Positions 16,826 through 47,875 of a DNA stretch of 53,831 bases are shown here, piece by piece (position 1 is the stretch's first letter; each line of letters starts with the position of its first letter). The notes beneath the pieces are model-generated. The model worked only from the letters and a program-made list of their open reading frames with translations, was not told where the DNA came from and searched no databases. The stretch is from IMG/VR virus record IMGVR_UViG_3300028735_000012, positions 1 through 53,831 of that record; one strand, written 5' to 3'. The stretch comes from a virus (lineage: Duplodnaviria; Caudoviricetes). A program made the position numbers and the translations under genes.

Positions 16826-18630
16826 TGGAGCTGCGACCGTACCAGCAGGCAGCGGTCGAAGCGGTGTATGACCATCTACGGACGCGGGACGACAATCCGT
16901 GCGTGGTCATTCCGACTGCCGGTGGCAAGACACCGGTCATGGCAACCATCTGCAAAGATGCAGTCGGGCAATGGGGTGGCCGCGTCCTGATCTTAGCCCA
17001 TGTCAAAGAGCTGCTAGAGCAGACAGCAGACAAGCTGCGGGCCATTTGCCCAGAGGTCAGCTACGGTGTCTATTCGGCGGGCCTCAAGCGGCGCGATACA
17101 GACTATCCCGTCATCGTAGCTGGCATTCAGTCGGTCTATCAGCGGGCCTGTGAATTTGACCCGTTTGACTTGGTGATCGTGGATGAAGCGCATCTTATCC
17201 CGCCGGACGGAGATGGCATGTACCAGCAATTCTTGGCCGAGGCCCGGGTCGTCAATCCCAACCTGCGGGTCATTGGCTTCACGGCGACGCCATACAGGCT
17301 AAAGTCGGGGCCTATCTGCACGCCGGACGGCATCCTCAACCACATTTGCTACGAAGTTGGGGTGCGGGAGTTGATTGTCCAGGGCTACTTGTGCCCGCTT
17401 GTCACCAAAGCGGGCAAGGCACGGGCCGACACTAGCGGCCTGCACGTCCGGGCGGGTGAATTCGTAGCCGATGAAGTTGAAGAGCTGATGGACGACAATT
17501 GGCTCGTTGAAGCCGCTTGTGCTGAGATTGTCGAACATACCCATGATCGCAAGGCGGTTCTGATCTTTGCTTCGGGCATACGGCACGGCCAGCACGTCGT
17601 GCAAGTGCTGAAAGAACGGCACGGCATCGAGTGCGGCTTTGTCAGCGGGGAATCGTCAGACGACGAACGAAGCCGATTGATTTCTCGGTTCCGCGATCAG
17701 GAATGGATACGCCAACTCCAAATTGACTTTGGTGCAACCGCCGCCCCCAAGCCGCTGAAGTATCTAGCCAACGTCAATGTGTTGACGACCGGCTTCGATG
17801 CGCCAAATGTCGATTGTGTGGTCTTGCTTCGGCCCACGATGTCGCCGGGCCTCTACTACCAGATGGTTGGTCGAGGATTTCGACTGCATCCAGCCAAGCA
17901 AAACTGCCTGGTCCTTGACTTTGGCGGCAACGTGTTGCGACATGGACCGGTAGATCTGATCAAGGTCAAAACTGCCAGTCGCGGCGACACCAAAAGCAAA
18001 GAATCACCGGCCAAGGAATGCCCGGAATGCCAGTCCATCATTGCTGCCGGCTATGCACGCTGTCCCAATTGTGGCTACGAGTTTCCGTCGTCTGAGCGCA
18101 GCAAGCACGAAGCAAAGGCTAGCAGTGTCGGCATATTGTCGGGCCAGGTGACAATTGAAAAGTATACTGTGCGAGACGTGTCTTACAGCGTCCATAAGAA
18201 GCGTGGTTCGCCGGAGGACGCCCCAAGGTCAATGCGGGTCAATTACCGGGTCGGCTGGCACGAATACAAGTCAGAGTGGATCTGCTTTGAGCATACAGGC
18301 TTTGCGCGGCAAAAAGCGGTCGCTTGGTGGAGCAAGCGGTCGCATGAACCGGTGCCTGCAACAGCTGCCGAAGCCGTCGCGATTGCTAATGCTGGCGGGC
18401 TGGCCTCGACGCTTTCGATCACCGTGCGATCGGTAAGCGGCGAGGAGTACGACCAAATTATTGACTATGAACTCGGACCAATTCCAGAGTTTCTCGGTCT
18501 GGATGAGGTCCACGATACTAGCAACACCGGACTGCTAGACGACGACGCAATCAGTTTTCCGTACGGCTACAACGCGGCTGATGCCACAGAAAGCGTGGCT
18601 GATACCACAGAAGATGATATTCCGTGGTAA
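16825..18630 (+). CDS. SF2 DEAH helicase (RadD/YejH-like) with C-terminal Zn finger
   Basis: LRPYQ, PTAGGKT, DEAH, TATP, QMVGRGFR, CPEC...CPNC. Confidence 0.92.
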   Translation: MELRPYQQAAVEAVYDHLRTRDDNPCVVIPTAGGKTPVMATICKDAVGQWGGRVLILAHVKELLEQTADKLRAICPEVSYGVYSAGLKRRDTDYPVIVAGIQSVYQRACEFDPFDLVIVDEAHLIPPDGDGMYQQFLAEARVVNPNLRVIGFTATPYRLKSGPICTPDGILNHICYEVGVRELIVQGYLCPLVTKAGKARADTSGLHVRAGEFVADEVEELMDDNWLVEAACAEIVEHTHDRKAVLIFASGIRHGQHVVQVLKERHGIECGFVSGESSDDERSRLISRFRDQEWIRQLQIDFGATAAPKPLKYLANVNVLTTGFDAPNVDCVVLLRPTMSPGLYYQMVGRGFRLHPAKQNCLVLDFGGNVLRHGPVDLIKVKTASRGDTKSKESPAKECPECQSIIAAGYARCPNCGYEFPSSERSKHEAKASSVGILSGQVTIEKYTVRDVSYSVHKKRGSPEDAPRSMRVNYRVGWHEYKSEWICFEHTGFARQKAVAWWSKRSHEPVPATAAEAVAIANAGGLASTLSITVRSVSGEEYDQIIDYELGPIPEFLGLDEVHDTSNTGLLDDDAISFPYGYNAADATESVADTTEDDIPW

Positions 18631-18657
18631 TTTCGCACGATCTGGAGAGACTAACAA

Positions 18658-20985
18658 ATGAATAACAATGCAAATGAACTCGGCAAGATTGCCAAAGCTC
18701 TTCTTCGTGCGGGTCTAAGTGTGCTTCCTGCCAAGCGAGAGGGGGACGCTAAGCGTGTAGCTTTGTCCGTTTGGAAACCGTACCAAGAGCGTCTGCCGAC
18801 TAGTGCCGAAGTGCGTGGCTGGTTTGCCAATCGCCACCAGTCGCTATGCCTTGTATGCGGTGCAGTGTCCGGCAATCTGGAGATGATTGATTTTGACCTC
18901 AGCGCCGAGATGTTCGAGCCATGGTGCAGCTTGGTGCGCGAAATGGCCCCAGACCTGCTTGAGCGGCTGGCAATCGAGACTACGCCTTCTGGGGGCAAGC
19001 ACGTCATTTATCGCTGCAATTCGCCTGTCTGTGGCAATCTCAAGCTTGCTCAACGAAAGCTAATTACGCCAAATGCGGACGCAGTTACGATTGCCGGCAA
19101 AACTTTTTTGCCAAGAAAGGACGCTCAAGGAAACTGGTCGATCCTATTGACATTCATTGAAACTCGTGGCGAGGGGGGCATTTTTTTGTGCTGGCCATCT
19201 GAAGGGTACAGCATCGTTCAAGGCAGTCTTACTGAGCTGCCGGTCATTACTGCTGAAGAGCGAGAGATACTGTTGTCGGCGGCATGGTCGCTGAACGAAC
19301 ATCATGCCGATCCCGAACCTGAACCAGTGCCTGCTGCGCCAACATATGGTCTTCGCCCTGGTGACGATTACGCCCAACGCGGGGATGTCCGAGACGTGTT
19401 GCTCAAGCACGGCTGGGTGCTTGTCAAGTCTGGTGAGAATGAATACTGGCGCAGGCCCGGTCGAGATGTTGGATGGTCGGCTACACTGCGAGATCGGGTC
19501 TTTTACGTCTTTAGCTCCAATGCTGCACCCTTTGAGCCGGGCAAAGCTTACGGCCCGTTTGCAGTGTACACATACCTGGAACACAACGGAGACTTTGTCG
19601 CAGCGGCCCGGGCGCTTAGCTCTGAAGGTTACGGCGGCACGCCGGCGATTGTGTCGATTGGAGACCGCGAAGATCCGGCTACGCCCGCTATGGTGGATCC
19701 TGGGCCAACACCTGTTGAAATGTTGCGTGTACCAGGTTTTATCAGCGAATTGATGGATCACACGCTAGCTGTTGCACCATACCCGAATCCGGTCATGGCA
19801 TTTGCTGGAGCGCTAGCATTGCAGGCATTTCTTGCTGGTCGCAAGGTACGCGATTCCGGCAATAATCGCACCAATATCTACCTACTTGGCCTAGCTCACT
19901 CCAGCTCAGGAAAAAACGAACCGCGCAAAGTCAATGCAGAAATCCTCTATCAAGTGGGCCTTTCTGAATGTTTGGGAGGACAATTTGCGTCCGGTGAAGG
20001 CATTCAAGATGCTCTCTTTCAGACACCCAGCATGCTGTTTCAAACAGATGAAATTGACTCGATACTACAATCGATCAACAAGGCTAAAGATGCTCGACAT
20101 GAAGCGATCATGAGTACGCTGCTGACGATGTATTCGTCAGCAAACAGTGTGTTTTCGATGCGTCGCAAAGCGGGCAAAGAATCACCGGGAGCGATTGATC
20201 AGCCATGTTTAGTGATCTTTGGTACAGCAGTCCCAAATCACTATTACCAAGCTCTTAGCGAACGCATGCTGACCAACGGCTTTTTCGCGCGAATGGTCGT
20301 CTTAGAGTCTGGGCCGCGATCACCTGGGCAAGAGCCGAGCGTTGATCCGCCACCACAAAGAGTCTTGGGTACGGCCAAATGGTGGGCCAACTATCGACCC
20401 GGTACAGGCAATCTGGAGCAATTTCACCCAGTGCCGGCTGTGGTCGAATATACCGACGAAGCTAAGCAACTGCTAATCGAGACGCGTTTGGCCGCAGATG
20501 CCGAATACGCCAAAGCGGAAGCCAAGAACGATCCGGTTGGTACAACTGTCTGGGGACGAGTCAGCGAACAAACTCGTAAACTATCGCTGCTGTACGCTGT
20601 TAGTGAAAATCACCAGTCGCCACGCATTAGCCTAGCCGCTGTGCAATGGGCATCGGCCTTTATGATGCACCAAACAAAGCGCATGCTCTTTATGGCGACC
20701 GGTCACGTTGCAGAAAACCCATTTCATGCCGAATGTCTCAAAGCGTTGGGGAAATTACGCAACGCCCCCAACGGCCAACTTTCGCACAGCGTGCTACTAA
20801 AACGCATGAAAATGGATGCCAAAAGCTTCTGCACCCTCATGGATACGTTAGTGCAGCAAGGGGACGTGGAAATCATAACGGAGCCTACGCCCGGTCGCAC
20901 CATGCGAGCATATCGCATTGTCGGTTCAGTAGCCCAAGAAGTGAAACAGAAAAGCGAAACAAGCAGCGAAAGAGAAAAAAGCTAA
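18658..20985 (+). CDS. Prim-Pol bifunctional primase/polymerase fused to DUF3987-type helicase domain
   Basis: GLSVLP, MIDFD, ETTPSGGKHVIY, ETRGEGG; C-terminal HSSSGK and QTDE motifs. Confidence 0.85.
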   Translation: MNNNANELGKIAKALLRAGLSVLPAKREGDAKRVALSVWKPYQERLPTSAEVRGWFANRHQSLCLVCGAVSGNLEMIDFDLSAEMFEPWCSLVREMAPDLLERLAIETTPSGGKHVIYRCNSPVCGNLKLAQRKLITPNADAVTIAGKTFLPRKDAQGNWSILLTFIETRGEGGIFLCWPSEGYSIVQGSLTELPVITAEEREILLSAAWSLNEHHADPEPEPVPAAPTYGLRPGDDYAQRGDVRDVLLKHGWVLVKSGENEYWRRPGRDVGWSATLRDRVFYVFSSNAAPFEPGKAYGPFAVYTYLEHNGDFVAAARALSSEGYGGTPAIVSIGDREDPATPAMVDPGPTPVEMLRVPGFISELMDHTLAVAPYPNPVMAFAGALALQAFLAGRKVRDSGNNRTNIYLLGLAHSSSGKNEPRKVNAEILYQVGLSECLGGQFASGEGIQDALFQTPSMLFQTDEIDSILQSINKAKDARHEAIMSTLLTMYSSANSVFSMRRKAGKESPGAIDQPCLVIFGTAVPNHYYQALSERMLTNGFFARMVVLESGPRSPGQEPSVDPPPQRVLGTAKWWANYRPGTGNLEQFHPVPAVVEYTDEAKQLLIETRLAADAEYAKAEAKNDPVGTTVWGRVSEQTRKLSLLYAVSENHQSPRISLAAVQWASAFMMHQTKRMLFMATGHVAENPFHAECLKALGKLRNAPNGQLSHSVLLKRMKMDAKSFCTLMDTLVQQGDVEIITEPTPGRTMRAYRIVGSVAQEVKQKSETSSEREKS

Positions 20986-20991
20986 TCGAGC

Positions 20992-21200
20992 TTTTGCCTC
21001 TTCTTTCTTTTCCTTCCCCCCTCCTTCTCTCTGGTGGAGTGAAGAAAGTTTGTCGTCGTAAGTATAAGAAATATAATAAATTATCTCTCTCTCTCTCTCT
21101 TCTTTCTCTCTTTCTCTCTACTTCTCTCTCTCTATTTTTTTTTATTTTTATTTTTGTGTGTGTGTATATAAGAGAGGTGAGGGTGAAAGAGAGAAAGAAG
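20992..21200. repeat. Low-complexity pyrimidine/purine tracts ((CT)n, T-run, (GT)n); candidate replication origin
   Basis: ttatctctctctctctctcttctttctctc...tttttttttatttttatttttgtgtgtgtgtatata directly after the primase gene. Confidence 0.6.
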
Positions 21201-21302
21201 ATACTCCGGCACCGTAGATTGCTGTCTGGATAGGATTGCGCAGGACATTTTTTGTGACCGACGTAACGGATTTGTCATAGATTCTGCACTAGAGGATTTA
21301 TT

Positions 21303-21848
21303 ATGAAAAATGTACTTACGACTGGGCAGGTGGCTCGTATGCTAAACACTTCTCCAAGGACAGTGACTAAGTGGGTCGATTCTGGGCAACTGAAAGGCTA
21401 TCGACTGCCTCTCTCCCCAGACCGACGCATTCCTCGTGCATCGCTGCTGGAATTTATCCGGCAGCACAATATCCCTATTCCGCCCGAGCTAGGCTTGCCG
21501 ATCCTGCTAGTGGTGGGCGACCCAGACATGGCTGAGCAATTGCAACGGCAGCTAGTAGGCTGGAAGGTCGAAGCGGCAGACTCCGTATGGACCGCTGCCA
21601 CAATCGCCACTAAAGCCGGCGGACAGCTACGCGGGGCCGTTGTAAGCGGCCAAATAGGCCGCCTTGAAGCAAGAGAGATCGCCCAAGCCCTAGCAGATCA
21701 AATCCGCCTGCGAATCGTGCTATGCGCGGAAGACGACGACGGCTCGATCTGGACGAGCGACGCTGCACTCATGCGCATGCAGTATCCTGTAAGACCTGAC
21801 GCTATCTCGCGGGCCATCCTTTCGGGCATGACGGGGGGATCAAAATGA
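21303..21848 (+). CDS. HTH_17/MerR-like DNA-binding domain plus degenerate receiver-like domain
   Basis: VLTTGQVARMLNTSPRTVTKWVDSGQLKGYRLP...RRIPR, resembling a conserved planctomycete regulator. Confidence 0.8.
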   Translation: MKNVLTTGQVARMLNTSPRTVTKWVDSGQLKGYRLPLSPDRRIPRASLLEFIRQHNIPIPPELGLPILLVVGDPDMAEQLQRQLVGWKVEAADSVWTAATIATKAGGQLRGAVVSGQIGRLEAREIAQALADQIRLRIVLCAEDDDGSIWTSDAALMRMQYPVRPDAISRAILSGMTGGSK

Positions 21849-21893
21849 AACTAAACCGCCAGCAGATGGAAGAACTTTTTACCCAACATCAAG

Positions 21894-22003
21894 GCTTCAA
21901 TGCGGCCACGGTGAGACACCGTGGAGATACAAAGGACCGGTGGGTGGACAGGGTGCAGGGCTTCCAGCTTCAATGCGGCCACGGTGAGACACCGTGGAGA
22001 TAC
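21894..22003 (-). CRISPR. CRISPR mini-array: two identical 37-bp repeats and one 36-bp spacer
   Basis: Repeat GCTTCAATGCGGCCACGGTGAGACACCGTGGAGATAC at 21894-21930 and 21967-22003; internal CCACGGTG/CACCGTGG hairpin; reverse complement ends in ATTGAAGC; AT-rich region 22040-22240 is a possible leader. Confidence 0.9.
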
Positions 22004-22206
22004 GACCGGTGCCTACCGATTGCTGCATGAGCAATGGCTACTACGCGACAAATAATTGTTGCCACCCTTTTTTAAGGAGGCAAGTATCACAAAACATCCT
22101 ATGAAATTTTATTGATGACACTTTAACAATCCAAACAGTTGAAGATTTTTTCGCAGTAGTTTGTGTCGTGTTTTTGCTTGGAGGCGTGAAAGTTTAGCAA
22201 AGATTG

Positions 22207-22235
22207 TTGACTGGAATAAATGTTTTACGAATAAT
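22207..22235 (+). promoter_or_regulatory. Possible sigma70 promoter TTGACT-17-AATAAT
   Basis: Direct reading upstream of the sigma-like gene. Confidence 0.4.
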
Positions 22236-22277
22236 TGATTAACGGGCCTAAGCGGAACTCAACCCCTCCAGAAAGCC

Positions 22278-23231
22278 ATGCCCGCTGAAACGCAGCCACT
22301 GCTTCCTTTCTCCGACTGGACCGCTTTGAAAGCGGACAACTGGTCGGCCAAAGCAAATACGCCACCTACGAGAAAATCTCGCCCTTCGACTGATTCTGCT
22401 TGTTCTAGCGAGCCGACACAACAGCTCATCACCTTCACAAGCGGTTCCCGTCTCACCGAAGAGCAGCAGCGTCTAGTTGAGGCCAACCTTGGCCTAGTCT
22501 ACAATCTTGTCGGGAAATTTAGGTTTCCGCAGGCGTATCACGACGATGCCGTCAGTGATGCCATGTTGGCATTGGTCCATGCGGCACGCGGGTTCAAGGC
22601 AGACAGAATTGGCAAATTTTCTGCATTTGCGTATCTTTGCATTGAAAGAAGGCTCAAATCTTTGTATAATCGCATTTTGAAGTTAGAGTCGCGGCGTGCT
22701 TCTGACGTGACGCAACGCGACGAGTGGGACGACGAGTGGACTGAGAACGGCCAAGCTCTGCATGAGCCAGCGATCAACGATGCGCCTTACGTTCCGGTGT
22801 TGGACGATCCCCAAGGAACCCGACGGCCTATGTCGAAGCAATGCCGAGCATTTGGCGACCTAGCCCCTGTGGTGTGGTCGCTACGCTCAAGGCATCGCCG
22901 CGTGCTTTGTGCGGCTTATGTGCGTAGCACTCGCGTGCAGGCATCGCTCACCGAATTAGCTTGCACGCTACGTTGCACGCGGCAAGAAGCTCGTGAGCGA
23001 CTGCAAGAGGCTCTTGCGGCTCTGCGTCGCCGACTGCTACGCGAATGGGGTGACACGCCACCTCGGCCTTGGAGCGTAGCTGACGATGACGCCCTGCGGC
23101 CTCTGCTTGCCCTCACAGGTATGCGTCGCCAACTGGTCCTCATGCTGCTTGCCCAACGCTGGCAGCGATCCTACCGCGAAGTCAAAGCGCGGGCAAACTA
23201 CCTGCAACAGGAGGCTGACAATGGGACGTAA
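22278..23231 (+). CDS. Sigma70-family (region 2) sigma-factor-like protein
   Basis: LVEANLGLVYNLV...DAVSDAMLALVHAARGF...KFSAFAYLCI; region-4-like HTH later. Confidence 0.7.
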   Translation: MPAETQPLLPFSDWTALKADNWSAKANTPPTRKSRPSTDSACSSEPTQQLITFTSGSRLTEEQQRLVEANLGLVYNLVGKFRFPQAYHDDAVSDAMLALVHAARGFKADRIGKFSAFAYLCIERRLKSLYNRILKLESRRASDVTQRDEWDDEWTENGQALHEPAINDAPYVPVLDDPQGTRRPMSKQCRAFGDLAPVVWSLRSRHRRVLCAAYVRSTRVQASLTELACTLRCTRQEARERLQEALAALRRRLLREWGDTPPRPWSVADDDALRPLLALTGMRRQLVLMLLAQRWQRSYREVKARANYLQQEADNGT

Positions 23232-23625
23232 GAAAAAAGCGTCGCCCGAACTGCCTGAAAACATGGCAGAATTTCTGGCCGCTTTCGGCAACAAACGCAA
23301 AGAAAGAAAGTATCGCAACGCTCCCGTTGAGGTAGACGGGCGACGCTTTGCTTCCAAAGCAGAAGCTCGACGCTACGGGCAGCTAAAGCTACTTCTCAAT
23401 GCAGGCAAGATTCGTCTGTTGGAAATGCAAGTGCCATACACGCTTACCGTCAATGAGCAGGTAATCTGCAAATACGTAGCCGACTTTGTGTACGAAGAGT
23501 GGGACGGCTCAGCTTGGGTAAGCGTGGTCGAGGACGTAAAAGGAATGCGCACCAAAGAGTACATACTCAAGCGTAAGCTAATGTTGGCTATTTATGGTAT
23601 TGCTATTCGAGAGGTGCAAGCATGA
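23221..23625 (+). CDS. DUF1064 family PD-(D/E)xK nuclease
   Basis: KYRN..VEVDGRRFASKAEARRY; YVADFVY; VEDVKG. Confidence 0.85.
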   Translation: MGRKKKASPELPENMAEFLAAFGNKRKERKYRNAPVEVDGRRFASKAEARRYGQLKLLLNAGKIRLLEMQVPYTLTVNEQVICKYVADFVYEEWDGSAWVSVVEDVKGMRTKEYILKRKLMLAIYGIAIREVQA

Positions 23626-23831
23626 CGAACAAAGAAGCAACAGAAACGCTGGCAGATATTCACCGAGCAATCCAGGGGCAAGATCTGCTATTGGGCTCTG
23701 CGTTAGCCCGCGAAGTGCTTGCTCTCAGGCGCGAACGTGACGCGTTGCTCAAGGACATTGCAGAGAAGGACAAAGCTTGCGACAAAAGTTCAAAAATGCT
23801 TGCTTGTTCGGCATATGCAACGATAGACTAA
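23622..23831 (+). CDS. Hypothetical protein
   Basis: GAGGTG RBS, ATGA coupling. Confidence 0.5.
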   Translation: MTNKEATETLADIHRAIQGQDLLLGSALAREVLALRRERDALLKDIAEKDKACDKSSKMLACSAYATID

Positions 23832-23949
23832 AACATCCTGCTGCACCGTTCGGCAGGCGGTGTCGTGGCTGGGGCATTCTCCCCCCGCAGAAGTGTAACG
23901 TCCGGGCAGATCGGACGTGCGACACCGAGGCAAACATGGGAGTGACGCA

Positions 23950-24123
23950 ATGGAGTTTTTGGGATTCGTGCTGGCTACACTGCTACAACTCTGCGGTATT
24001 GTGGCCTTGAGTATTGTCTTGATGTTGCTTCTAGGTATTGCCGCCTGTGTGCCGCTGGTAGTGCTGACAATGGTGGTCGCAATGGTTGCCAAAATGCGAC
24101 AAGACAAGGAGGGGCAAGAATGA
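23950..24123 (+). CDS. Small membrane protein
   Basis: GGGAG RBS; very hydrophobic. Confidence 0.45.
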   Translation: MEFLGFVLATLLQLCGIVALSIVLMLLLGIAACVPLVVLTMVVAMVAKMRQDKEGQE

Positions 24124-24422
24124 GCTATGCCGACATCTATAAACGTCTGCAAAAGCATGCACATGGCTTTTCCTTGCGCAGCAACGTAGCGGCTGAGTTT
24201 GTGGCCGCCTGCGAAAATGCCGGACTCGAACCGCCACACATGGACGTTCCAAATATATTCTCTTTTTGCTTGGCCGATGGACGGCATGTTTCAGTGTTGG
24301 CCCAATCGCATGGCTTGATGTTGTGTGTAGATGGCTACGAGCCACAGCAGGGCCTCACGGCGGTCCAAGTGGTAGACATGCTTCAGCATGGGCCGCACGC
24401 CGAACGAAAGGCGGTGTGCTAG
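24120..24422 (+). CDS. Hypothetical protein
   Basis: AAGGAGG RBS, ATGA coupling. Confidence 0.55.
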   Translation: MSYADIYKRLQKHAHGFSLRSNVAAEFVAACENAGLEPPHMDVPNIFSFCLADGRHVSVLAQSHGLMLCVDGYEPQQGLTAVQVVDMLQHGPHAERKAVC

Positions 24423-25132
24423 TGAGTAATGCGTACACCCTGTACCTCGGCGATTGCTTCGACATGCTGCGGACCATGCCCGACGCTTCGGTAAATGCAG
24501 TCATTACCGACCCGCCATATGGCGATCTCACTCACGCCGGAGCCAGAACACGCAAAAATGGCGTGCAAAAGCTAGTGCGTTTTAATGGTTTGACAACAGA
24601 CAAGTTTTTGCATGTTTGCGCAGAACTCGTGCGTGTGTCGCGCCGATGGGTGATTTTGTTTTGTGACTGGCAGCATGCGGCTGCCGCTGAGCAAGCTGGA
24701 CTGCCCGTTGTGCGACTGGGCGTTTGGATTAAGACGAATGCTGCACCACAATTCACGGGCGATCGCCCCGGTGTTGGCTGGGAAGCCGTGCTAATCCTGC
24801 ATCGCCCCGGGCGCAAACGTTGGAATGGCGGCGGTTATCCCGCTGTCTGGCAATCCAAATGCGCCCGAGGCAATCACCCCACAGAAAAACCAGTGCCCTT
24901 GCTGCGCGAATGGGTCCAGCTGTTCACGGATCCAGATGAAGTTGTGTTCGATCCGTTTGCGGGTAGCGGTAGCACCGGAGTAGCCACCTTGTCGGTTGGG
25001 CGTCGATTTGTCGGCTGTGAAATCGACCCCAACTATCACGCTATTGCCTTGCGACGATTGGCCGAGGTACAGTGCGAAGCCGGATTGTTCCGTCGATCAC
25101 AGTTGTTGTCGTTTGAAGTCCCCAGATCGTAA
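24422..25132 (+). CDS. DNA amino-methyltransferase (N4-C/N6-A, beta class)
   Basis: ITDPPY, HPTEKP, DPFAGSGST motifs. Confidence 0.9.
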   Translation: MSNAYTLYLGDCFDMLRTMPDASVNAVITDPPYGDLTHAGARTRKNGVQKLVRFNGLTTDKFLHVCAELVRVSRRWVILFCDWQHAAAAEQAGLPVVRLGVWIKTNAAPQFTGDRPGVGWEAVLILHRPGRKRWNGGGYPAVWQSKCARGNHPTEKPVPLLREWVQLFTDPDEVVFDPFAGSGSTGVATLSVGRRFVGCEIDPNYHAIALRRLAEVQCEAGLFRRSQLLSFEVPRS

Positions 25133-25160
25133 CTTTGCTTTGTTTCGCTAAGGAGAATAT

Positions 25161-25742
25161 ATGTTAAACCTTAAAAACCAAGCGGAACGCTCTATCCCTT
25201 ACGGCGTGCTGCCTGACTGGGCTATTCGTGAATATGTGAGGATCACACCGTTCGCTGAATGCCAAAAACGCCCTGGCATCATTTCCTACGGCCTAGGACA
25301 CTATGGTTACGATTTTCGGCTGGGCACGCGATTTAAGCGATACAGCATGGCCGAAGGACTACCGGTCGATCCCAAGAATGCCGCCAGCGAGTTTGAAGAA
25401 TTCGAGACACCTAGCCCTTTTGCTCTGCATCCCGGAGAGTTTGTTCTCGGCGAGCTGATAGAGCATATCGAAATGCCCGACGACGTGATCGGCATCGCGA
25501 TGGGTAAATCAACATATGCACGATGTGGCATTATTGCAAATGTGACACCTCTAGAGCCTGGTTGGAAGGGCATTCTCACCATCGAATTGAGCAACACGAG
25601 CAAACGTCCCGTCCTGCTCTATCCCGACGAAGGCATCCTTCAGATTGTGTTCTTGCGCGGCCAGCGCCCCGACGTGACGTACGCAACCAAAGGCGGAAAG
25701 TATCAGGATCAGCAAGGCGTCACAGTAGCAAGGGTGGATTGA
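25161..25742 (+). CDS. dcd: dCTP deaminase
   Basis: ISYGLGHYGYD, GKSTYARCG, TPLEPGWKG, KYQDQQGVT. Confidence 0.92.
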   Translation: MLNLKNQAERSIPYGVLPDWAIREYVRITPFAECQKRPGIISYGLGHYGYDFRLGTRFKRYSMAEGLPVDPKNAASEFEEFETPSPFALHPGEFVLGELIEHIEMPDDVIGIAMGKSTYARCGIIANVTPLEPGWKGILTIELSNTSKRPVLLYPDEGILQIVFLRGQRPDVTYATKGGKYQDQQGVTVARVD

Positions 25743-25768
25743 TCCGCACCTGATCGGCACTGATGACC

Positions 25769-25802
25769 TGAACTATCCCGTGTTTTTGCATGGGATAGTT
25801 CA
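25769..25802. terminator. Inverted repeat between convergent dcd and thyX
   Basis: tgaactatccc...gggatagttca, 11-bp perfect arms. Confidence 0.6.
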
Positions 25803-26543
25803 TGGTGCCCCCCAAGAAGAAGATAACGTTTCATCTGTTTGAACTTGAATGTCTTCAAACAAATTAGGCGATTCTGATACTAATGTTTTGTAGATGTGAA
25901 TAGCTAGACGCCGAATCTCCGGATCAGCCTGTTTGCTGCCACGCAACAACAAAAAGTGTCGCCATGCTCGTGCATTGGCCGTAACGAACAGCTTGGTCTC
26001 TGTAGCATTGGGCAAAACGCTTCGAGCAGCTTGCCTTACCGTCTTGATAGATCCTGCCTCAAGTTGGCTTTGAATCATATGTGTCAATTGCACATAGGAA
26101 TCATGAGCATATTGCATTGCTTTGCGCCAGATGCTGAATAGACTTGCATCAGCAGCTATGATCTCCGGCACAACGTACTCTGGGGAGGATTCATCCACAT
26201 ATCTTTGCGAAAGCTGAGAAAAACTCATGTGTCTGTGACGTACAAATTCATGCGACAGACTGCGCGAGATGCCTGTAATTAGCAGACTAAATACAGCATG
26301 CTCTAGCACGCTGCCATGACGAGCTTCAAGAATGTGTTGGATGTAGGATTTGTTTCCTCCTGGTCTAGGCCGAGCGTAGCTCATATAGCAAACCCGGCCA
26401 GCTGTCTCAACTAGCACCTCAGAGCCTACAGAACTGTCAGACTCCCAAGAGACGCCGTGGTCGCTCAGAAAACGATCCAGCTCATCGCTGGATACTGTCT
26501 GATGCCCGACTAGGTACACTTGGGGAGCAGTAATAATGCGCAT
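25800..26543 (-). CDS. thyX: FAD-dependent thymidylate synthase
   Basis: HGSVLEH; RHRHMSFSQLSQRY ThyX motif; ARSVLPNATET. Confidence 0.95.
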   Translation of the reverse strand: MRIITAPQVYLVGHQTVSSDELDRFLSDHGVSWESDSSVGSEVLVETAGRVCYMSYARPRPGGNKSYIQHILEARHGSVLEHAVFSLLITGISRSLSHEFVRHRHMSFSQLSQRYVDESSPEYVVPEIIAADASLFSIWRKAMQYAHDSYVQLTHMIQSQLEAGSIKTVRQAARSVLPNATETKLFVTANARAWRHFLLLRGSKQADPEIRRLAIHIYKTLVSESPNLFEDIQVQTDETLSSSWGAP

Positions 26544-26600
26544 GCTTTAAGCTCCAAATAGGATGTGAGAAAAAAACAAGTGATACGCTTTGTGAACCAG

Positions 26601-27542: not shown

Positions 27543-28301
27543 ATGCTGGTGTCCTATGACAATAAGGAGACACCTGTGATCCGATCGGCCCCGGAGTTGC
27601 TGGCCCGCGCAATGGGTGTATCCTGTGCCGGGCCGCAACGCTGTTATTTGTGTGGTGCCCCATGCGGCATGACACACACACGCGAAAAGTTTATACGCGA
27701 TACGTTTACCGGCGGCGCGACCGTGGCCTATCCCGCCTCGCGTTTTATCTGCGAAGGCTGCGTGCTTTGTCTGCGTGAATCCTGCGAGGTGCCACAATGC
27801 GACGGCACCAACAGGCATATCAATAAAGGAGCAATGCGAATGTGTTCGTGGCTGCTCACAGCTACGAGTGCCACGGCAGCGACCAAGGCGCACACCTCTT
27901 GGATTCGCGAGATGGCCCTGGCAGAACATGCTGCGCCATGGTGCCTGTCCATTGCCATCAGCGGTCAAAAGCACCTACTGTATCGAGGCGTGGTCAATTA
28001 CGATGCCGGCCCGGTGCGTGCTGTGACGCTAGAGGGCGAGCGAATAGACTATTACGTTCAGGATCTGCGCGACATGCTGGCTACAGCCACGGCTATTGTG
28101 GCAGCATGCGGTAAGCCATCCCTGGAAGATGGGCCGACTCCAGCAACGGTGATTCGGATGTTGGAATACTTGCCCCGATCAGGTGAAAAAATTGTCCAGC
28201 GGTGGCAAGCATATCTACAAAGCCAAGCTTCACAGTGGAGCTTGGCCTGTTTTCTTTCCCCTGCAAAAAAGGAGGCATCGCGTGTCGTATCCCCCGAGTG
28301 A
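27543..28301 (+). CDS. csf1: Type IV CRISPR-associated Csf1 (Cas8-like large subunit)
   Basis: CYLCG...ICEGC Zn finger, SGQKHLLY motif; first gene of the csf operon (start may be GTG 27576 after AAGGAG). Confidence 0.7.
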   Translation: MLVSYDNKETPVIRSAPELLARAMGVSCAGPQRCYLCGAPCGMTHTREKFIRDTFTGGATVAYPASRFICEGCVLCLRESCEVPQCDGTNRHINKGAMRMCSWLLTATSATAATKAHTSWIREMALAEHAAPWCLSIAISGQKHLLYRGVVNYDAGPVRAVTLEGERIDYYVQDLRDMLATATAIVAACGKPSLEDGPTPATVIRMLEYLPRSGEKIVQRWQAYLQSQASQWSLACFLSPAKKEASRVVSPE

Positions 28302-28761
28302 CAATGCAAAGCATAGGCTTAGTTGCGAGGATTTTCGGCGCAAGCTCGCCGACCACATTGACACGCAGCGAGTGGTGGAAAGTGTTGGTGAATGCATGAG
28401 TGTGCGTGAGGCATGCCACCGCTGGCTTGCCCTCCTGGCCAAACACTATGGCACTAGCGAAGACCGAACCCAGATGTGGGCACACATCCACAAAGCAGTT
28501 TCAGTAGCCCTAACCCGCGTGCAAGATGCCGATTTGGAACGATTTGCTACGCTGTGTCTAGAAGGCATCCACGCCGACCCAGTGCGAGTGGCCGCATGCG
28601 AAGCGATTAATCAAATGCTCACCACGGAGTTTAGCTCCGATCACCGCGATGCCGCTTGGCGAAACGCCATCATCTCCCGACTTCGCACCCATCTGACGAC
28701 CGATCTGTCCCATGCCCGGCAACGCTGGGCCAAAATCAAGGAAGGGGGCGTAGAGGCATGA
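28282..28761 (+). CDS. Cas11-like small helical subunit (type IV-B)
   Basis: GGAGG RBS before GTG 28282; all-helical pattern; position between csf1 and csf2. Confidence 0.55.
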   Translation: MSYPPSDNAKHRLSCEDFRRKLADHIDTQRVVESVGECMSVREACHRWLALLAKHYGTSEDRTQMWAHIHKAVSVALTRVQDADLERFATLCLEGIHADPVRVAACEAINQMLTTEFSSDHRDAAWRNAIISRLRTHLTTDLSHARQRWAKIKEGGVEA

Positions 28762-29777
28762 GTCAGACTTATCACGTCCGCATCCTGCATGAGGCGATTA
28801 CACCAATCGCCCACATGCGTGGCAACGAAGGCAACGTCAGCGTCATCAACCGACAAGAGGTCATGACCCCAGCTGGACTGGTCAAGATGCCTGTCTTGTC
28901 AGGCAATGCTTTGCGGCATCGAATGATTCGCGAGCCGCTGGCGGAACATCTTGTCGAAGCATGGGGACTCTCAGGGCGCGTGACCTGGGAATGTCTCAAT
29001 TTCCTTTATCACGGTGGCAATCTCACCGGCTCAACAGGCCGCGAGGACACCCAGCGGATCGCGAAATTGTGCCGATTGATCCCATTTGTGCGGCTGTTGG
29101 GCGGCACACTGCCCGATCAGATTCTCTGTGGCTCAGTCTCGGTGAGCGACGGCTTGCTTGTGTGCCGGGAGTTTGCACCAGCCATTCGTGCCCTGTTCCC
29201 GGCGTCGTCAGGTTGGGAAGTGCCCGACGGGCTACGCTGCGGCGAAGACTATCTCGGTCAATACCAGCACACAAGGGGTGACGCAGCTAAAACGCATCCG
29301 CTCCGGGGGCCGAAGGAGCAGGGGGTGGACAGCGACACCAACTTGATGATTTTCTCAGGCGAAACAGTGGTTCGGGGTGCCTTGTTCGCACAGCGAATTT
29401 CGCTGCGCAGTGTGTCAGATCTGGAACTTGGGGCCATGCTATTTGCTCTGCGACAATGGCAGGCGTCAGGAGGCACTGTGGGCGGCCAGTCGTCGCGGGG
29501 CAAAGGCTACCTGCAATCGGCTTGGCATGTAGAGCAAGCCTATGCAGACCATCCTGCCCCGGTGGATGAGGACGCTCCAGTAGCAGCGTATCTGAACCAT
29601 GTAGCCGCATTCAAGGACGAGGGCGTGGCGTTCTTGCTAAGCATTTACGGTGAACCGGGAGCTAAGCCCGCTAAGCCAGTCAAAGAAAACAAGCGTAAGG
29701 CTAAGTCGGCTAAAGAAGTTACACTCGAAGAGCAAGTCGCTACGGAAGGACCAGACAAGTCTGGAGAGGACACATGA
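28758..29777 (+). CDS. csf2: Type IV Cas7-like Csf2
   Basis: TPIAH, PVLSGNALRHRMIR, LYHGG, RLLGG, GGQSSRGKG Gly-loop. Confidence 0.85.
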   Translation: MSQTYHVRILHEAITPIAHMRGNEGNVSVINRQEVMTPAGLVKMPVLSGNALRHRMIREPLAEHLVEAWGLSGRVTWECLNFLYHGGNLTGSTGREDTQRIAKLCRLIPFVRLLGGTLPDQILCGSVSVSDGLLVCREFAPAIRALFPASSGWEVPDGLRCGEDYLGQYQHTRGDAAKTHPLRGPKEQGVDSDTNLMIFSGETVVRGALFAQRISLRSVSDLELGAMLFALRQWQASGGTVGGQSSRGKGYLQSAWHVEQAYADHPAPVDEDAPVAAYLNHVAAFKDEGVAFLLSIYGEPGAKPAKPVKENKRKAKSAKEVTLEEQVATEGPDKSGEDT

Positions 29778-30562
29778 GCATGGAGCCGTTGCGAGTATGC
29801 GCCCATTTGGCCACACCCATCCTTGCTAATCCGCCTAAGCTGGACGCTCTGCTGGAACTGCGCCTGAGTATGCGTATGAAGGAGGAAGCGTACAACATCG
29901 AACGGCCAGGTCGAGAAATTCCCTGGCCGCGATCAGACGAATTGTTGGCGGATTACCTTGCTCGGACGCAAGGCGTATTGCCAGACAAAAAGGCAGTTGC
30001 TTTGTGGGAGCATGCTCGCGATGGTTCTGCGTTCCCTTTGCCTCTAGGTTGGGAGCGAATCGGTCCCTGGCGTTTGCCACGAGTGAGCAATCCTATCTTG
30101 ATCAGCATTGAAGCCGACACGGTTCGCTATGTCGCCAAGCGAATCGGCACTCAGCGGGTCGAGCAAGTGCATCCGGTGGCAAGGGGTGTACTCAACACTA
30201 CGGGAGGTTGGACCAAAAGCTATCGCCTGCCCATGCGCCAGCGAGCAGCACGAGCAGTGGTGTGGTTTGCGTTCGGCCACGGTAGTGCGATCCGTAAGGA
30301 ATTACAGCGCATCGAAGCCTTGGGTAAAAAAACTTCGATCGGTGGCGGGGTAGTTGCCAAGTGGGAAGTTACACCTATCGACCAAGATTACTCTTGGACA
30401 GCCTACAATCTCGAACAAAATGCCCGCGTGCTAATGCGGACGCTCCCCGTGGAAGCACTGGCCACACTGGGTGATTGCATTGGTTGGAAGCGATCTTTTG
30501 GGGCTTGCGTTGCACCCTATTGGCATCCGGATCGATATACCGAAATCATCGAGCCATGTTGA
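29774..30562 (+). CDS. csf3: Type IV Cas5-like Csf3
   Basis: LRVCAHLATP...LDALL; LGKKTSIGGGVVAKW; MRTLP; APYW. Confidence 0.8.
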   Translation: MSMEPLRVCAHLATPILANPPKLDALLELRLSMRMKEEAYNIERPGREIPWPRSDELLADYLARTQGVLPDKKAVALWEHARDGSAFPLPLGWERIGPWRLPRVSNPILISIEADTVRYVAKRIGTQRVEQVHPVARGVLNTTGGWTKSYRLPMRQRAARAVVWFAFGHGSAIRKELQRIEALGKKTSIGGGVVAKWEVTPIDQDYSWTAYNLEQNARVLMRTLPVEALATLGDCIGWKRSFGACVAPYWHPDRYTEIIEPC

Positions 30563-33036: not shown

Positions 33037-33683
33037 AATGGGACTACGGCGGCGCGCACGAGCGGCATGACATGAATGGCATCATTGAGCTGCCTAACAA
33101 CTCGCTAGTCCAGGTATTCGATTGGACAACCGGCCCACTGCCTGACTTTATGCGACAAGCAGACACAGTATTTGTTGACCCGCCGTGGAATGCAGGCAAT
33201 GTGCGGACCTTTTACACTAAGGCAGATCTTGCTTCTGGCCGTGTAGACTTCAGGCATTTTCTTGGGCTTCTCTGGGAAAGAATTTTGGAGATCTCTCCAC
33301 AATATCTATTTTTGGAAATGGGTAAAGAGCATCTTGGCGAAATTCTTGTTGAAGCCAAACGCAGATGGAAATATGTTACATTTTACAATTCAACGTACTA
33401 TCATAAAAAACAAAATATTTGCTATGTGATCCATGCAACGAATGACTACGCCAACCGACGATACAAGTGTTTAGAAGGAATGGACGAGCAGCGTATCATT
33501 GAATGGATTTGTCGTCATCATTCATACCAGTGTATTGACGATATTTGCATGGGACAGGGTCTTGTAGGCTGGAATGCTTATCTGGCCGGCAAGCGATTTG
33601 TCGGTACAGAACTCAATCGCAAGCGACTAGCGGTGTTAGTTGAATGCGTCCGTAACCATTACCGTGAAAACGGGTTGCAATGA
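33033..33683 (+). CDS. Methyltransferase-like protein
   Basis: FVDPPW and DICMGQG...FVGTELN motifs. Confidence 0.7.
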   Translation: MKWDYGGAHERHDMNGIIELPNNSLVQVFDWTTGPLPDFMRQADTVFVDPPWNAGNVRTFYTKADLASGRVDFRHFLGLLWERILEISPQYLFLEMGKEHLGEILVEAKRRWKYVTFYNSTYYHKKQNICYVIHATNDYANRRYKCLEGMDEQRIIEWICRHHSYQCIDDICMGQGLVGWNAYLAGKRFVGTELNRKRLAVLVECVRNHYRENGLQ

Positions 33684-34417
33684 TAGTGCTAAGTATTCGC
33701 CATCGGCCAGAGGATTTGGCTTTGTGGCAAGAGTACAAAGAGGCTGACGTTTTGGCTTGCAAGCATCGACTGCTACGCCTAGAGCAAGAAGCTATTGCGG
33801 CCATTCGAGCGTTTGTCCAAAATGGCAAAGCTTACTGTGGGGTATCTTGGGGTAAAGATAGCGTTGCGGTGGCGTATTTGTGCCATCTTGCCGATGTACA
33901 GGCGCCACTGATCCATTTTCGGCCAACCAATCACAATCCTGATTGCGATGCTGTGCGTGACATTTACTTGCGCCAATGGCCAAGCGAATATCATGAAGTG
34001 TATGTAAACTATTCTGACCTGCATTCCAGAAGATTGCCGCATCAGACGCTTGATCAATTGACTGATGAGCGATGGTATGCGGCAATTCGAGAAGTAAATC
34101 GTCACTATGGCGAACGCCACATTTTGGGTATTCGGGCGGATGAGTCGGCAGGACGACGCATTCGCTGTCTGCGATGGGGAGTTAGTAGCCCTAACGGTTG
34201 TGCGCCCATTGCGTTCTGGTCTTGTGCAGATGTGTTTGCTTATTTGTGTTGGCGAAATTTGCCCATCCACCCCGCTTACGCTATGCTGGGTGGCGGACGC
34301 TGGCCACGGGAGAAACTGAGAGTAGCTGAGATTGGCGACACACACGGCACCGGCGGCGGTCGCCGTCAATGGGAAGAGGAATACTATCCCGACGTGTTGC
34401 GACGAATCGAAGCCTGA
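33680..34417 (+). CDS. CysH-like PAPS-reductase-family protein (type IV-B accessory)
   Basis: VSWGKDS, LGIRADES.GR, PIAFW...DVFAY, LPIHPAY. Confidence 0.85.
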   Translation: MIVLSIRHRPEDLALWQEYKEADVLACKHRLLRLEQEAIAAIRAFVQNGKAYCGVSWGKDSVAVAYLCHLADVQAPLIHFRPTNHNPDCDAVRDIYLRQWPSEYHEVYVNYSDLHSRRLPHQTLDQLTDERWYAAIREVNRHYGERHILGIRADESAGRRIRCLRWGVSSPNGCAPIAFWSCADVFAYLCWRNLPIHPAYAMLGGGRWPREKLRVAEIGDTHGTGGGRRQWEEEYYPDVLRRIEA

Positions 34418-45520: not shown

Positions 45521-45969
45521 GACGCATGAAAAAATCTAGCCTCATGGCAATGCTCGAGGACGCCGGCTATCGCATGCACGAGCAAGGACAATTGACACGT
45601 TACTATGTTATTAACGTACTCATGCACAAGCGAAGCAGGGAAGGACAACTGCTAGTGGAGTATCACGAGCCGCCTGAAAAGGTGATGACACACGCCGAAG
45701 AGTTGGCTAGCCTGTTTCGCAAACGAGGCTATCGCGAGTGGCGGATTCCCCAGTTGGTGCAAGAGCAGCTTGCCCGTGAGGCAGAGGCTGAAGCCAAACG
45801 CAAAGCCGAGAAGTTCAAAAAACGCGAGGCGATGCGCAAGAAGCAACGGGGAGATGCGCAGGTGGAAGCGGAAGCAACGGCTCAGGCGATTGCGGAGCTA
45901 GAAGCACATGGCCGATCTCAGACAATTCGCAAGCAACGCGGCGGAGGCCCTGGAGCGACTGCGCAGTAG
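45448..45969 (+). CDS. Tail assembly chaperone T-like segment (-1 frameshift extension or separate ORF from 45526)
   Basis: -1 frame open from the slippery site to 45969. Confidence 0.5.
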   Translation, partial: PKLVSPRDTKNGSGGKREQQRQRLRRMKKSSLMAMLEDAGYRMHEQGQLTRYYVINVLMHKRSREGQLLVEYHEPPEKVMTHAEELASLFRKRGYREWRIPQLVQEQLAREAEAEAKRKAEKFKKREAMRKKQRGDAQVEAEATAQAIAELEAHGRSQTIRKQRGGGPGATAQ

Positions 45970-47875
45970 TGCAGATCTCGCTTCGCTAGGCTTGACTGCC
46001 GCCTTTGAGCGATTGACCCAACGCCTGCAACCGCTTCTCACACAATTGGGGACAGGAAGCGTCTCTGGTGCCCAGACTGCGGCATCGAGATCTGGGGCAA
46101 AGGCCGATAACTTAGCCGCGTCGCTGCCGTTGGTGCTAATCAATCCGCCCGGTGGCGGTGCGGTCTCACCTCCACCACCGCCACCGGGTTCGAGGACGCC
46201 CAGCATCAATACACCATCACTTGCGGATCTTTCACCTGCCACCGTGACTACACCGACGGTCAAGGGGCCGGCTGGGGGACAGGGTGCAGGGTTTCCTTTG
46301 CCTCTCCCGGTTCGCATTGTGTCGATGGATGCCAAAGCGTCGGCGCAGATGGCCGTGCTGGCGTTGCCCGGCCAGGTGGCGACCGTGGCAGCCCAGCAGC
46401 AAAGGCAGGCGGGCGGCGGGGGTGGCATTACGCAATTCGCGCAGAATGCCGGTGCGCAAGGTGCAAGCCTGTTTGCACAACTTAGAGACGCTATGACCGG
46501 CTTTGCGTCATCTGCTGATCCATTTATCAGCTGGCCAACATACAAGGCAAGTGTGGAAGGGCTAAGCATCAGCATTGGGCAGATGTTTACACCTGCCCTG
46601 AATGAAGCTTCTCGATACATCCAGCAAGTAACGGCATATATTGATGGTCTGGATGCGACAACCAAAAGCTACGCGGCCCGCGTGGTGATTACGGGTGTGA
46701 GTGTGCTGGCCGGAGTGGCGGCTTTGTACAAACTTGGTCAAGCTTTTTACGCCGTTGCCGTGGCGGCACGAGCGGCTACGGTGGCCATGATTTCCAACCC
46801 TGTGACGGCGATTATTGCGGCCACGGCGGCGGTGGCGGGCTTGGCGGCGGCTTGGTATCTGGCGTCCAACAACGCCAATAGTGCCGCTACGGCGGCGGGC
46901 AAAGTGGCGGGGGTAATTGCAGGATTGCGTGATGCCGGCAGTGCTGAACCGCAAGTCACAGATTTGCGAAAGGTTTCTCCCGAAACGCGAAAGCTCATCG
47001 AGTCAGCTTCGCAGAAAAAATCCCCGACTATTTTGGGGCAAGCCCGAGAAGCACTAGATAAAGAAGCAGAAGAAGCAAAGCAAGCGTTTGAAAAAGCAGA
47101 CGCCGTTTACAAGGCGACACAATCGCAACGTGACACCGCCTATGCTTTTGACGCTGCGATTAGCAAGGCATTTGCGGAAAATGTACGAGAAGCGTCTCGC
47201 ACGATTAGCTTGTTTAACGCATATCCAAGCCTCAGAGAGGGGGAAATTCCTAAAGGTGTTCAGCTTACTCCATTTCAACAAGCTGTTTTGCGTGAACGCC
47301 CTAAGACAATGGAGCAGGTGCGACGGGTTGTAGGCGCAGAAGCCGACGCCAGAATGTCAAGCACCCTAGTGCAGGAAGCGGCTAAATTGCCCGACGCGAT
47401 CAGAGATCGTGTCGTGCAGGAGTTTCGCAGTGACATCCCATCAACGTATTTTACTCAAGGCTATACGTCTGCACCTCTGGGAGTGTTAAAACAAAAACGT
47501 CCTGAACTGTTAGATGCTCGCAATCTAAGTTTTCCGATTAATCCTGCCGGCAGTGTGATGGTTGACTACGGCATTTCTCGCACACTGACACAAGCACGTG
47601 AGCGATTGGACGCCATTTCACGATTGCAAAATGCCGTAGGGGGTGGTGGCACCACAGGTGGCCCGATGCAAGCGTTAGGCAGTCTACCTGCACCGGTGAT
47701 TTCCAGCAGTGAAGCGTTAGCCGATCGGCTTCAAATTGCTGCTCTCAAAGGTGACGATTTGCAAGCGGCTAACATGGCTAAGCAGTTACAAGCTCTGGAG
47801 CAATCCAATGTGCTTTTGAAAGAAGTAAAAGACGCGATTCGTGATCTTCGCATCTTACCACAGTGGATGTATTAG
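45908..47875 (+). CDS. Tail tape measure protein
   Basis: Ala-rich helical protein with hydrophobic NPVTAIIAATAAVAGLAAAW segment; follows the chaperones. Confidence 0.75.
   Translation: MADLRQFASNAAEALERLRSSADLASLGLTAAFERLTQRLQPLLTQLGTGSVSGAQTAASRSGAKADNLAASLPLVLINPPGGGAVSPPPPPPGSRTPSINTPSLADLSPATVTTPTVKGPAGGQGAGFPLPLPVRIVSMDAKASAQMAVLALPGQVATVAAQQQRQAGGGGGITQFAQNAGAQGASLFAQLRDAMTGFASSADPFISWPTYKASVEGLSISIGQMFTPALNEASRYIQQVTAYIDGLDATTKSYAARVVITGVSVLAGVAALYKLGQAFYAVAVAARAATVAMISNPVTAIIAATAAVAGLAAAWYLASNNANSAATAAGKVAGVIAGLRDAGSAEPQVTDLRKVSPETRKLIESASQKKSPTILGQAREALDKEAEEAKQAFEKADAVYKATQSQRDTAYAFDAAISKAFAENVREASRTISLFNAYPSLREGEIPKGVQLTPFQQAVLRERPKTMEQVRRVVGAEADARMSSTLVQEAAKLPDAIRDRVVQEFRSDIPSTYFTQGYTSAPLGVLKQKRPELLDARNLSFPINPAGSVMVDYGISRTLTQARERLDAISRLQNAVGGGGTTGGPMQALGSLPAPVISSSEALADRLQIAALKGDDLQAANMAKQLQALEQSNVLLKEVKDAIRDLRILPQWMY

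Follow-up and report, generated by a model that had tools for sequence, protein, structure and literature searches.

A mini-CRISPR array bearing a type I-G-family repeat in an uncultivated phage of a likely planctomycete host

The locus and its surroundings

This analysis concerns a very small CRISPR array, two repeats with one spacer between them, carried by an uncultivated virus of the class Caudoviricetes. The window, that is, the whole stretch of DNA that was analysed, is the complete IMG/VR virus record IMGVR_UViG_3300028735_000012, a linear sequence of 53,831 bp whose completeness is estimated at about 70%. Terminase, portal, protease and capsid genes are recognised on it; for the terminase a close cultured relative was not found, the best match being 39% identical. 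Nearly all of the phage genes lie on the plus strand, and a sigma factor gene of the phage's own adjoins the array. A first-pass annotation, made from the sequence alone, had proposed a phage-borne mini-array at this place. The features that concern us first are the following.

21967..22003, minus strand: CRISPR repeat 1, the first in the orientation of the CRISPR RNA (crRNA); an exact 37-nt copy, shared without any difference by nine metagenomic arrays
21931..21966, minus strand: single 36-nt spacer, equal in length to the commonest host spacers
21894..21930, minus strand: CRISPR repeat 2, an exact 37-nt copy
22004..22240, minus strand: intergenic, AT-rich (GC 0.40) and, in crRNA orientation, upstream of the array; not a canonical leader
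21872..21893, no strand assigned: junction segment beside repeat 2, matched at 20/22 by host spacer L149_sp7, the match ending at the repeat edge
21845..22030, plus strand: 61-aa open reading frame (ORF) crossing both repeats, from the ORF list; no Pfam family

The two direct repeats (21894-21930 and 21967-22003) are set 73 nt apart from start to start and enclose the spacer at 21931-21966. At least two direct repeats of about 23-55 nt, with a unique spacer of similar length, is the usual definition of a CRISPR array, and the locus has this form. There are only these two copies in the window at up to three mismatches, and 0 of 100 shuffles give any; a third, degenerate copy was not found within 400 nt on either side, where the best candidate agrees at 18/37 positions. 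Read on the minus strand, the repeat is GTATCT-CCACGGTG-TCT-CACCGTGG-CCGC-ATTGAAGC and folds into a hairpin with an 8-bp stem (-12.7 kcal/mol), which is followed by the four nucleotides CCGC and then by the 8-nt ATTGAAGC. The proposal of two identical, palindromic 37-bp repeats in minus-strand sense is thus confirmed, both by the exactness of the copies and by the stem. The Rfam family CRISPR-DR16 aligns end to end on the same strand, although below the threshold of the family (18.6 against 35 bits, E 0.15).

Six-frame searches of the window gave no match to Cas1, Cas2, Cas6 or Cas5-6g, the last with a profile that matched in none of the control genomes either. What is found is therefore a mini-array in the accepted sense, with one spacer, on a virus record (itself about 70% complete) and without cas1, cas2 or cas6, as had been proposed. 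It is a full repeat-spacer-repeat unit, and so differs from the elements termed Racr, which consist of a single repeat without a spacer. An alternative in which the two hairpins would be a pair of plus-strand terminators was considered and rejected: a T-run after the hairpins is absent, and a terminator-like site lies further on, at 22045-22062.

An 8-nt string, CACCGGTC in crRNA sense, occurs both at 22004-22011 and at 21935-21942, that is, at a distance of 0 nt before repeat 1 and of 4 nt before repeat 2. Chance could account for this duplication, as could microhomology from a capture event; or the string could belong to a longer unit that has been duplicated.

The flank of the array on the 22004 side is AT-rich over 200 nt (GC 0.40), and the region 22004-22240 could hold a promoter. 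A simple scan for sigma-70-type promoters places one on the plus strand at 22207-22235, together with the plus-strand terminator-like hairpin at 22045-22062, and one of the host spacers introduced below (L128_sp53) matches 22071-22108 perfectly.

At the other edge of the array there is evidence that the array was gained. The host spacer L149_sp7 matches 21872-21893 at 20/22 positions, with homology up to the boundary 21893|21894 and none past it, since its other 14 nt are unrelated to the repeat; a relative seen by the host therefore has other sequence where this phage has the array. Both edges of the array coincide with repeat ends, without spacer remnants. The 61-aa ORF, which begins with an ATGA overlap on a gene encoding a helix-turn-helix (HTH) protein, reads the repeats in two different frames, the 73-nt spacing not being a multiple of three, and probably represents what is left of the start of a small gene that the array has interrupted. 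The repeat-spacer-repeat unit probably owes its origin to host CRISPR material, from which it was either captured or built, and further spacer gain by leader-dependent adaptation is unlikely. Medvedeva et al., who refer for this to an independent comparative analysis, describe the mini-arrays of bacteriophages as leaderless and recombination with the arrays of the host as a way in which they may obtain spacers (PMC6858448); the present array fits that account.

The repeat family and the host

It had been suggested that the repeat might identify the host, and this has turned out to be the case. A metagenome scan returned 36 loci, among which nine contigs (L123, L126, L128, L131, L133, L139, L143, L149 and L153), with a common record prefix, have a repeat identical to that of the phage at 37/37 positions. 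Their arrays comprise 14-108 repeats, and that of L126 closes with a degenerate repeat at the end where the trailer is expected. The nine arrays yielded 400 host spacers, 395 of them unique, mostly of 36-37 nt, with 36 nt the commonest length (104/401). The phage spacer is not among the 400 that were sampled.

Many of these host spacers are directed at the phage group. Full-length matches of at least 80% identity to the window number 50 and come from 48 of the 395 unique spacers; 8 are perfect, whereas most of the 50 are 80-89% identical, from which it follows that relatives at that distance circulate. Both strands are hit (28 plus, 22 minus). On the 5' side of the protospacers a T stands at position -3 in 24/50 and at -2 in 31/50, against a background of 22%, a flank resembling 5'-TTN; the 3' flank of the same 50 matches carries no signal. 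The hits on both strands and the T-rich 5' flank are together the signature of a type I system that targets DNA and depends on a protospacer-adjacent motif (PAM), and the flank is an independent confirmation that the crRNA sense is the minus strand.

The taxonomic evidence comes from the genes beside the array of L126. One flanking protein, an HPPK-dehydrogenase fusion, has counterparts with 62-65% identity (E<=1e-89) in four of five Planctomycetota genomes, the best of them in the metagenome-assembled genome (MAG) that carries the type I-G locus L024 described below; in five genomes of other phyla with arrays of the same family there was no match at E<=1e-35. Taken together, the identical repeats, the spacers matching the phage and the planctomycete-like flanking genes point to a host that is a planctomycete actively immunised against this phage group.

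The class of the repeat was approached through its relatives. A strict repeat pattern gave 0 matches both in the viral collection (viral_contigs) and in the species-representative genomes (genome_contigs), so that relaxed patterns were needed, which keep the hairpin ends and the 3' handle; these matched at least 120 loci in cellular genomes. The impression that some genome matches were dispersed solitary repeats with irregular spacing proved to be an artefact of requiring a 5' GT, the loci being ordinary arrays. At one of them (L024), in a Planctomycetaceae MAG, a repeat that aligns with that of the phage with 30 identical positions adjoins genes for Cas3g, Cas8g, Cas7g and Cas5-6g, and tblastn placed homologues of these four proteins in 20 of 120 8-kb blocks, among the matches listed. 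Where an array is accompanied by a flanking ORF, as in 83 loci, the ORF of at least 200 aa that lies closest to it matches Cas1g in 23 and also Cas4 in 22, again among the matches listed, which indicates a Cas4-Cas1 fusion. Such a fusion is typical of type I-G. The first-pass annotation had described the repeat as class 1-like, of type I-G or III style, and had advised that it be searched for in genomes; similar repeats do sit in cas-linked arrays, and on the evidence of the neighbouring cas genes the repeat family is that of type I-G. This assignment holds for the family; for the exact host, type I-G would follow from the repeat family.

The geometry of the repeat is consistent with this assignment. 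In the type I-G system (formerly I-U) of Thioalkalivibrio sulfidiphilus, the repeat is 36 nt long, Csb2 cuts 4 nt past the base of the hairpin to leave an 8-nt 5' handle, and the PAM is TTN (PMC9638904). In the phage repeat, too, the hairpin is followed by 4 nt and these by a handle of 8 nt, and the T at -3 and -2 of the host protospacers parallels the TTN PAM. In contrast to such arrays, that of the phage has only two repeats, lies in a phage, and is without adjacent cas genes and without a leader motif.

The leader motif in question emerged from 58 cellular arrays, where CTCG[CA][AG] (often GCGCTCGCAA) occurs in 49/58 at -90 to -35 from the first repeat, mostly near -50, as against 84/1160 shuffles. 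It spans several phyla and may be a leader anchor for type I-G adaptation. The phage's upstream region has no sequence in common with the 58 cellular leaders. Of the earlier proposal that the array lies beside an AT-rich putative leader, the base composition is borne out but the leader is not supported, the motif of the cellular arrays being absent.

Some further loci of this repeat family deserve mention in their own right. On three planctomycete-type contigs, L099 (~6260-6420), L103 (3169-3277) and L124 (900-1020), a gene is immediately preceded by a two-repeat I-G-family unit. What follows the second repeat, the ribosome-binding and start region of the gene, is resembled by the 'spacer' in L099 and L103, and in L124 the flanks of the unit are duplicated. 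These units are reminiscent of CreR/CreA-like regulatory mini-arrays, but they would be such outside cas loci. The idea that an HTH_17 homologue beside the degenerate array of L124 forms a transferable module with it was abandoned, homologues being present only in L124 and L177 among 176 loci.

The target of the spacer and the explanations weighed

Two further sets of features enter the argument here, the first being the probable target gene and the second a type IV-B effector module.

46262..46297, minus strand: site in the carrier genome that resembles a protospacer; it agrees with the spacer at 29/36 positions, the mismatched ones being spacer positions 1, 6, 22, 25, 26, 31 and 34
45908..47875, plus strand: probable tail tape-measure gene, 655 aa; weak PHROG tape-measure matches (E ~1e-5), after the capsid and tail genes
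27543..30562, plus strand: csf1, cas11, csf2 and csf3, the type IV-B effector; PADLOC typeIV_Cas8 1e-44, Cas11 9e-21, Cas7 1.5e-66, Cas5 5e-32
33680..34417, plus strand: PAPS-reductase-family gene (Pfam PAPS_reduct), the usual partner after csf3; homologues after the csf genes in 15/19 loci

The spacer agrees with the phage's own genome at 46262-46297 in 29/36 positions, 15 of them contiguous, while the best of 500 shuffled spacers reached 24. The match is in frame: translated, the phage's own site gives KGPAGGQGAGFP and the spacer KGPVGGQGAGLP. Six codons contain the seven nucleotide differences, and in four of these codons the change is synonymous. Such a pattern indicates two orthologous coding sequences and not a chance resemblance. 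The spacer thus probably derives, to judge from the two sequences, from the orthologous tape-measure gene of a related phage. The closest tape-measure relatives in the protein collection are two only, 54% and 40% identical, and the peptide encoded by the spacer is absent from both; single-protein searches of viral_contigs did not find relatives of the sigma factor, of Csf2 or of the tape-measure protein. Among the 176 fetched loci, including the related I-G locus L024, the spacer has no other significant match. At the phage's own site the 5' flank is CAA and not TTN; with this flank and seven mismatches, one of them at position 1, the phage should be safe from its own guide. A role in self-regulation of its own tape-measure gene by partial pairing was considered and set aside on the same grounds, namely that the site is without a TTN flank and is mismatched at spacer position 1.

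The type IV-B complex that had been placed 5.5 kb away is indeed present, csf1 starting 5540 bp from the array. Between the two lie genes for the sigma factor, a DUF1064 protein, a methylase, a dCTP deaminase and ThyX. The module has the composition expected of type IV-B, with csf1, cas11, csf2, csf3 and a cysH-like gene and without DinG, Cas6 or adaptation genes. Two genes of the PAPS-reductase family lie downstream of the csf genes, and an ORF within the cluster (30475-31434) resembles an SNF2-type helicase lobe, not Cas6, which we regard as a lead. Within 30475-34417 of this phage, and likewise in L163 and L165, there is an insertion between csf3 and the PAPS-reductase partner, which in several related loci directly follows csf3; the insertion contains the ORF resembling the SNF2 helicase lobe, a PAPS reductase that is IbrA-like and carries DUF3440, and a protein like ParB. 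The Csf2 family numbers 383 proteins in our search, the few named ones being from Phycisphaerales and Gemmataceae, and a Csf2 query matched one of 401 Planctomycetota genomes, weakly. Among 19 IMG/VR viral loci with the same csf module, with up to 10 kb on each side, none has a mini-array by the same script that recovers the one in the window; nor was a convincing solitary repeat found there, the two candidates having 6-bp stems only and no family resemblance. The co-residence of array and module is notable, but recurrent co-occurrence was not observed, and nothing in the compared sequences ties the two together.

The explanation that we favour, with moderate confidence, is that this is a host-dependent mini-array by which the type I-G machinery of the host is guided against a related, competing phage. 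The array would be transcribed on the minus strand, and the type I-G Cas5-Cas6 fusion of the host (Csb2) would cut each repeat 8 nt from its 3' end, so that one crRNA with the handle AUUGAAGC would result. This crRNA would load into the host's I-G Cascade, which with Cas3 would be directed against the tape-measure gene of the closely related competitor, while the carrier's own copy would be spared by its seven mismatches and the absent TTN flank. Transcription, processing, loading and the exclusion of a rival are all inferred. Precedent exists in virus-borne mini-arrays with host repeats, with spacers against related viruses and with mutated orthologous sites in the carrier (PMC6858448, PMC11656645). 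The first-pass annotation had left it open whether the array borrows host Cas machinery or feeds the type IV-B complex; the evidence favours the former, and the latter has not gained from the comparison of the 19 related loci, none of which has an array.

Several observations weigh against this explanation. The leader motif CTCG[CA][AG] was not found within 200 nt upstream of the phage array, and the simple scan that gave a plus-strand promoter gave no minus-strand sigma-70-type promoter, although the phage has a sigma factor of its own beside the array and planctomycete promoters may differ. The searches did not find a perfect target flanked by TTN: in viral_contigs there were 0 matches to the exact spacer and 0 to a degenerate (IUPAC) pattern covering both the spacer and the phage's own site, and a search of the phage collection with the 110-nt array gave no meaningful match. 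On the host side, L126 and L149 have housekeeping genes in their assembled flanks, where cas genes were not found, the host's cas locus being unassembled. Finally, the 8 perfect host spacers mean that the phage is itself a target in such cells.

The first two of these points would also suit an array that does nothing, a repeat-spacer-repeat piece of a host array that has recently recombined into the phage, is neither expressed nor selected, and will decay. The array is, moreover, missing at this junction in at least one relative and from the 19 phage loci that share the IV-B module, and with 81% identity to its carrier the spacer looks like any host spacer against this phage group, for which identities of 80-89% prevail among the 50 matches. 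We nevertheless consider an inert passenger unlikely, since both repeats are complete and undecayed and agree fully with one another and with that of the host; since the edges lie exactly at repeat ends without spacer remnants, which would be rare under random capture; and since the sole spacer points at a phage structural gene of which the carrier's copy lacks the PAM and has seven mismatches. Another function would be one in which the array's RNA weakens I-G immunity, either by competing for Csb2 and Cas7g in the manner of a Racr or by sending Cascade to a host cas or toxin promoter in the manner of Cracr and crlRNAs. With 48 host spacers directed against the phage group, 8 of them perfect, counter-defence would pay, and phage mimics of host repeats are known (PMC10651486; 10.1101/2024.10.29.618823). 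A viral contig, L182, has on its minus strand a solitary repeat of the same I-G family (with a CCACGG stem) between a promoter-like site, TTGACA-17-TAGGAT, and a strong terminator-like hairpin, in a stretch reaching from about 200 nt before the repeat to about 240 nt past it; it is itself a candidate RNA anti-CRISPR against type I-G. However, Racrs are solitary repeats, whereas the phage array is a full unit with a spacer of normal length. The viral crlRNAs were found through spacers with at least nine PAM-proximal matches to known RNAs that regulate cas genes or toxins (10.1101/2024.10.29.618823). The phage array has perfect repeats, and the only significant match of its spacer is the phage tape-measure gene, there being none in the 176 loci, including the I-G locus L024 (which is related to, and not, the host's own). 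To such a decoy or regulatory anti-CRISPR we give little credence.

That both features lie on one phage genome invites the idea that the crRNA, matured by host Csb2, is loaded into the phage's own Csf1-Cas11-Csf2-Csf3 complex as a private RNA-guided binder. Type IV-B systems are described as being without their own Cas6 or array and have been proposed to accept crRNAs from other systems (10.1101/780106), and the archaeal Fuxivirus has a mini-array inside its IV-B locus (PMC10848311). Against this stand the 0/19 related IV-B viral loci with a mini-array or a convincing solitary repeat, the unrelated genes that separate the array from csf1, and a repeat that is that of the host's I-G family and not of a IV type. 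The solved IV-B complex was assembled on heterogeneous non-CRISPR RNA (PMC7937560), and a survey reports that arrays, mini-arrays and solitary repeats were not found beside IV-B (10.1101/780106). The chance that the array serves as such a guide therefore seems small. There is a hybrid version, to which we would likewise allow only a slim prospect, in which host Csb2 matures the crRNA and the nuclease-free Csf complex of the phage binds and silences the tape-measure gene of the rival, the crRNA being antisense to the mRNA; the complex might also soak up the many host crRNAs aimed at the phage. If that is true, a guide RNA would for the first time be assigned to a IV-B system. Lastly, the array might be an assembly chimera, host-array reads having been wrongly joined into the phage contig, since host arrays and phage share many near-identical stretches of 34-44 nt which can confuse assemblers. 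But the phage sequence runs on for more than 20 kb on either side, the junctions are unlike any sampled host repeat-spacer junction (L149_sp7 differs at 2/22 positions and is offset by 14 nt), and the spacer of the phage is not one of the 400 host spacers. Separate contigs of run X1 hold 0.99 of the sampled words of 17001-27000, though these may come from the source sample and so are not independent. A chimera is scarcely credible.

Further features of the record and comparison with known systems

Some other parts of the record are unusual. An intergenic match to the type-P5 twister ribozyme of Rfam lies at 7116-7180 on the plus strand (39.1 bits against a gathering threshold of 37.6, E 1e-4), and three consecutive genes with RCC1 repeats (beta-propellers) at 8314-10957 form an unusual tandem set for a phage. 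The segment 15001-16000 has 71% GC and strong GC skew, compared with about 50-57% GC in the rest of the phage, and contains overlapping ORFs on both strands directly before a RusA-like gene. A CT-rich tract of low complexity at 21081-21142 has an inverted 22-nt partner at 21180-21201 (91% complementary), upstream of the HTH gene. One host spacer, L131_sp47, has three matching sites 141 bp apart in 53156-53474, each agreeing at 32-33/37 positions, which points to a 141-bp tandem repeat within the last ORF of the record.

The closest parallels to the array are the mini-arrays of the Saccharolobus portogloboviruses SPV1 and SPV2 (Medvedeva et al. 2019, PMC6858448) and those of bacteriophages and prophages (PMC11656645). 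They have the same one or two spacers and host-identical repeats, they are likewise without processing or adaptation genes in the virus, and their spacers are directed against a gene of close relatives of which the orthologous site in the carrier is mutated, as the 29/36 site would be here. They differ in that the arrays of SPV1 and SPV2 come with leaders like those of the host, and their reciprocal targets were found and tested (PMC6858448), whereas for the phage array the leader motif is absent and a perfect target was not found. The present case differs from both in its planctomycete host and type I-G repeat. The papers cited contain no such case, although no dedicated literature search was made, so that no claim of absence in print is intended.

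Viruses of Bathyarchaeia provide two further comparisons (PMC10848311). Chiyouvirus has a mini-array with a host-identical repeat, like that of the phage, and Fuxivirus combines IV-B genes with a two-repeat, one-spacer array in one virus, as the phage does. Both, however, are archaeal, and in Fuxivirus the array is placed within the IV-B locus, its spacer having no match; the phage array, in contrast, stands 5.5 kb off behind unrelated genes and has the host's I-G repeat and a spacer with a clear near-match. The Racr elements (PMC10651486) and the Cracr and crlRNA elements (10.1101/2024.10.29.618823) are phage-encoded mimics of host repeats that depend on host Cas proteins, as the phage array would. 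They are distinguished from it by the absence of a spacer in the Racrs and by the way in which Cracr candidates were found, through spacers like those of cas- or toxin-regulating RNAs; the phage array has perfect repeats and a full-length spacer that matches a structural gene.

On the favoured explanation, then, this is a known strategy, here in a new host group, and virus-borne mini-arrays would be extended to a planctomycete host and to type I-G. An uncultivated 54-kb phage is tied to its host by two independent lines, the identical repeat and dozens of matching host spacers. The phage is also one of very few viruses with both a IV-B module and a mini-array, and thus offers a natural system for asking whether IV-B uses crRNAs, a question which the published surveys leave open. 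One conflict can be followed from its two sides in these data, with heavy targeting of the phage by its host and what looks like use of the same machinery by the phage against a relative.

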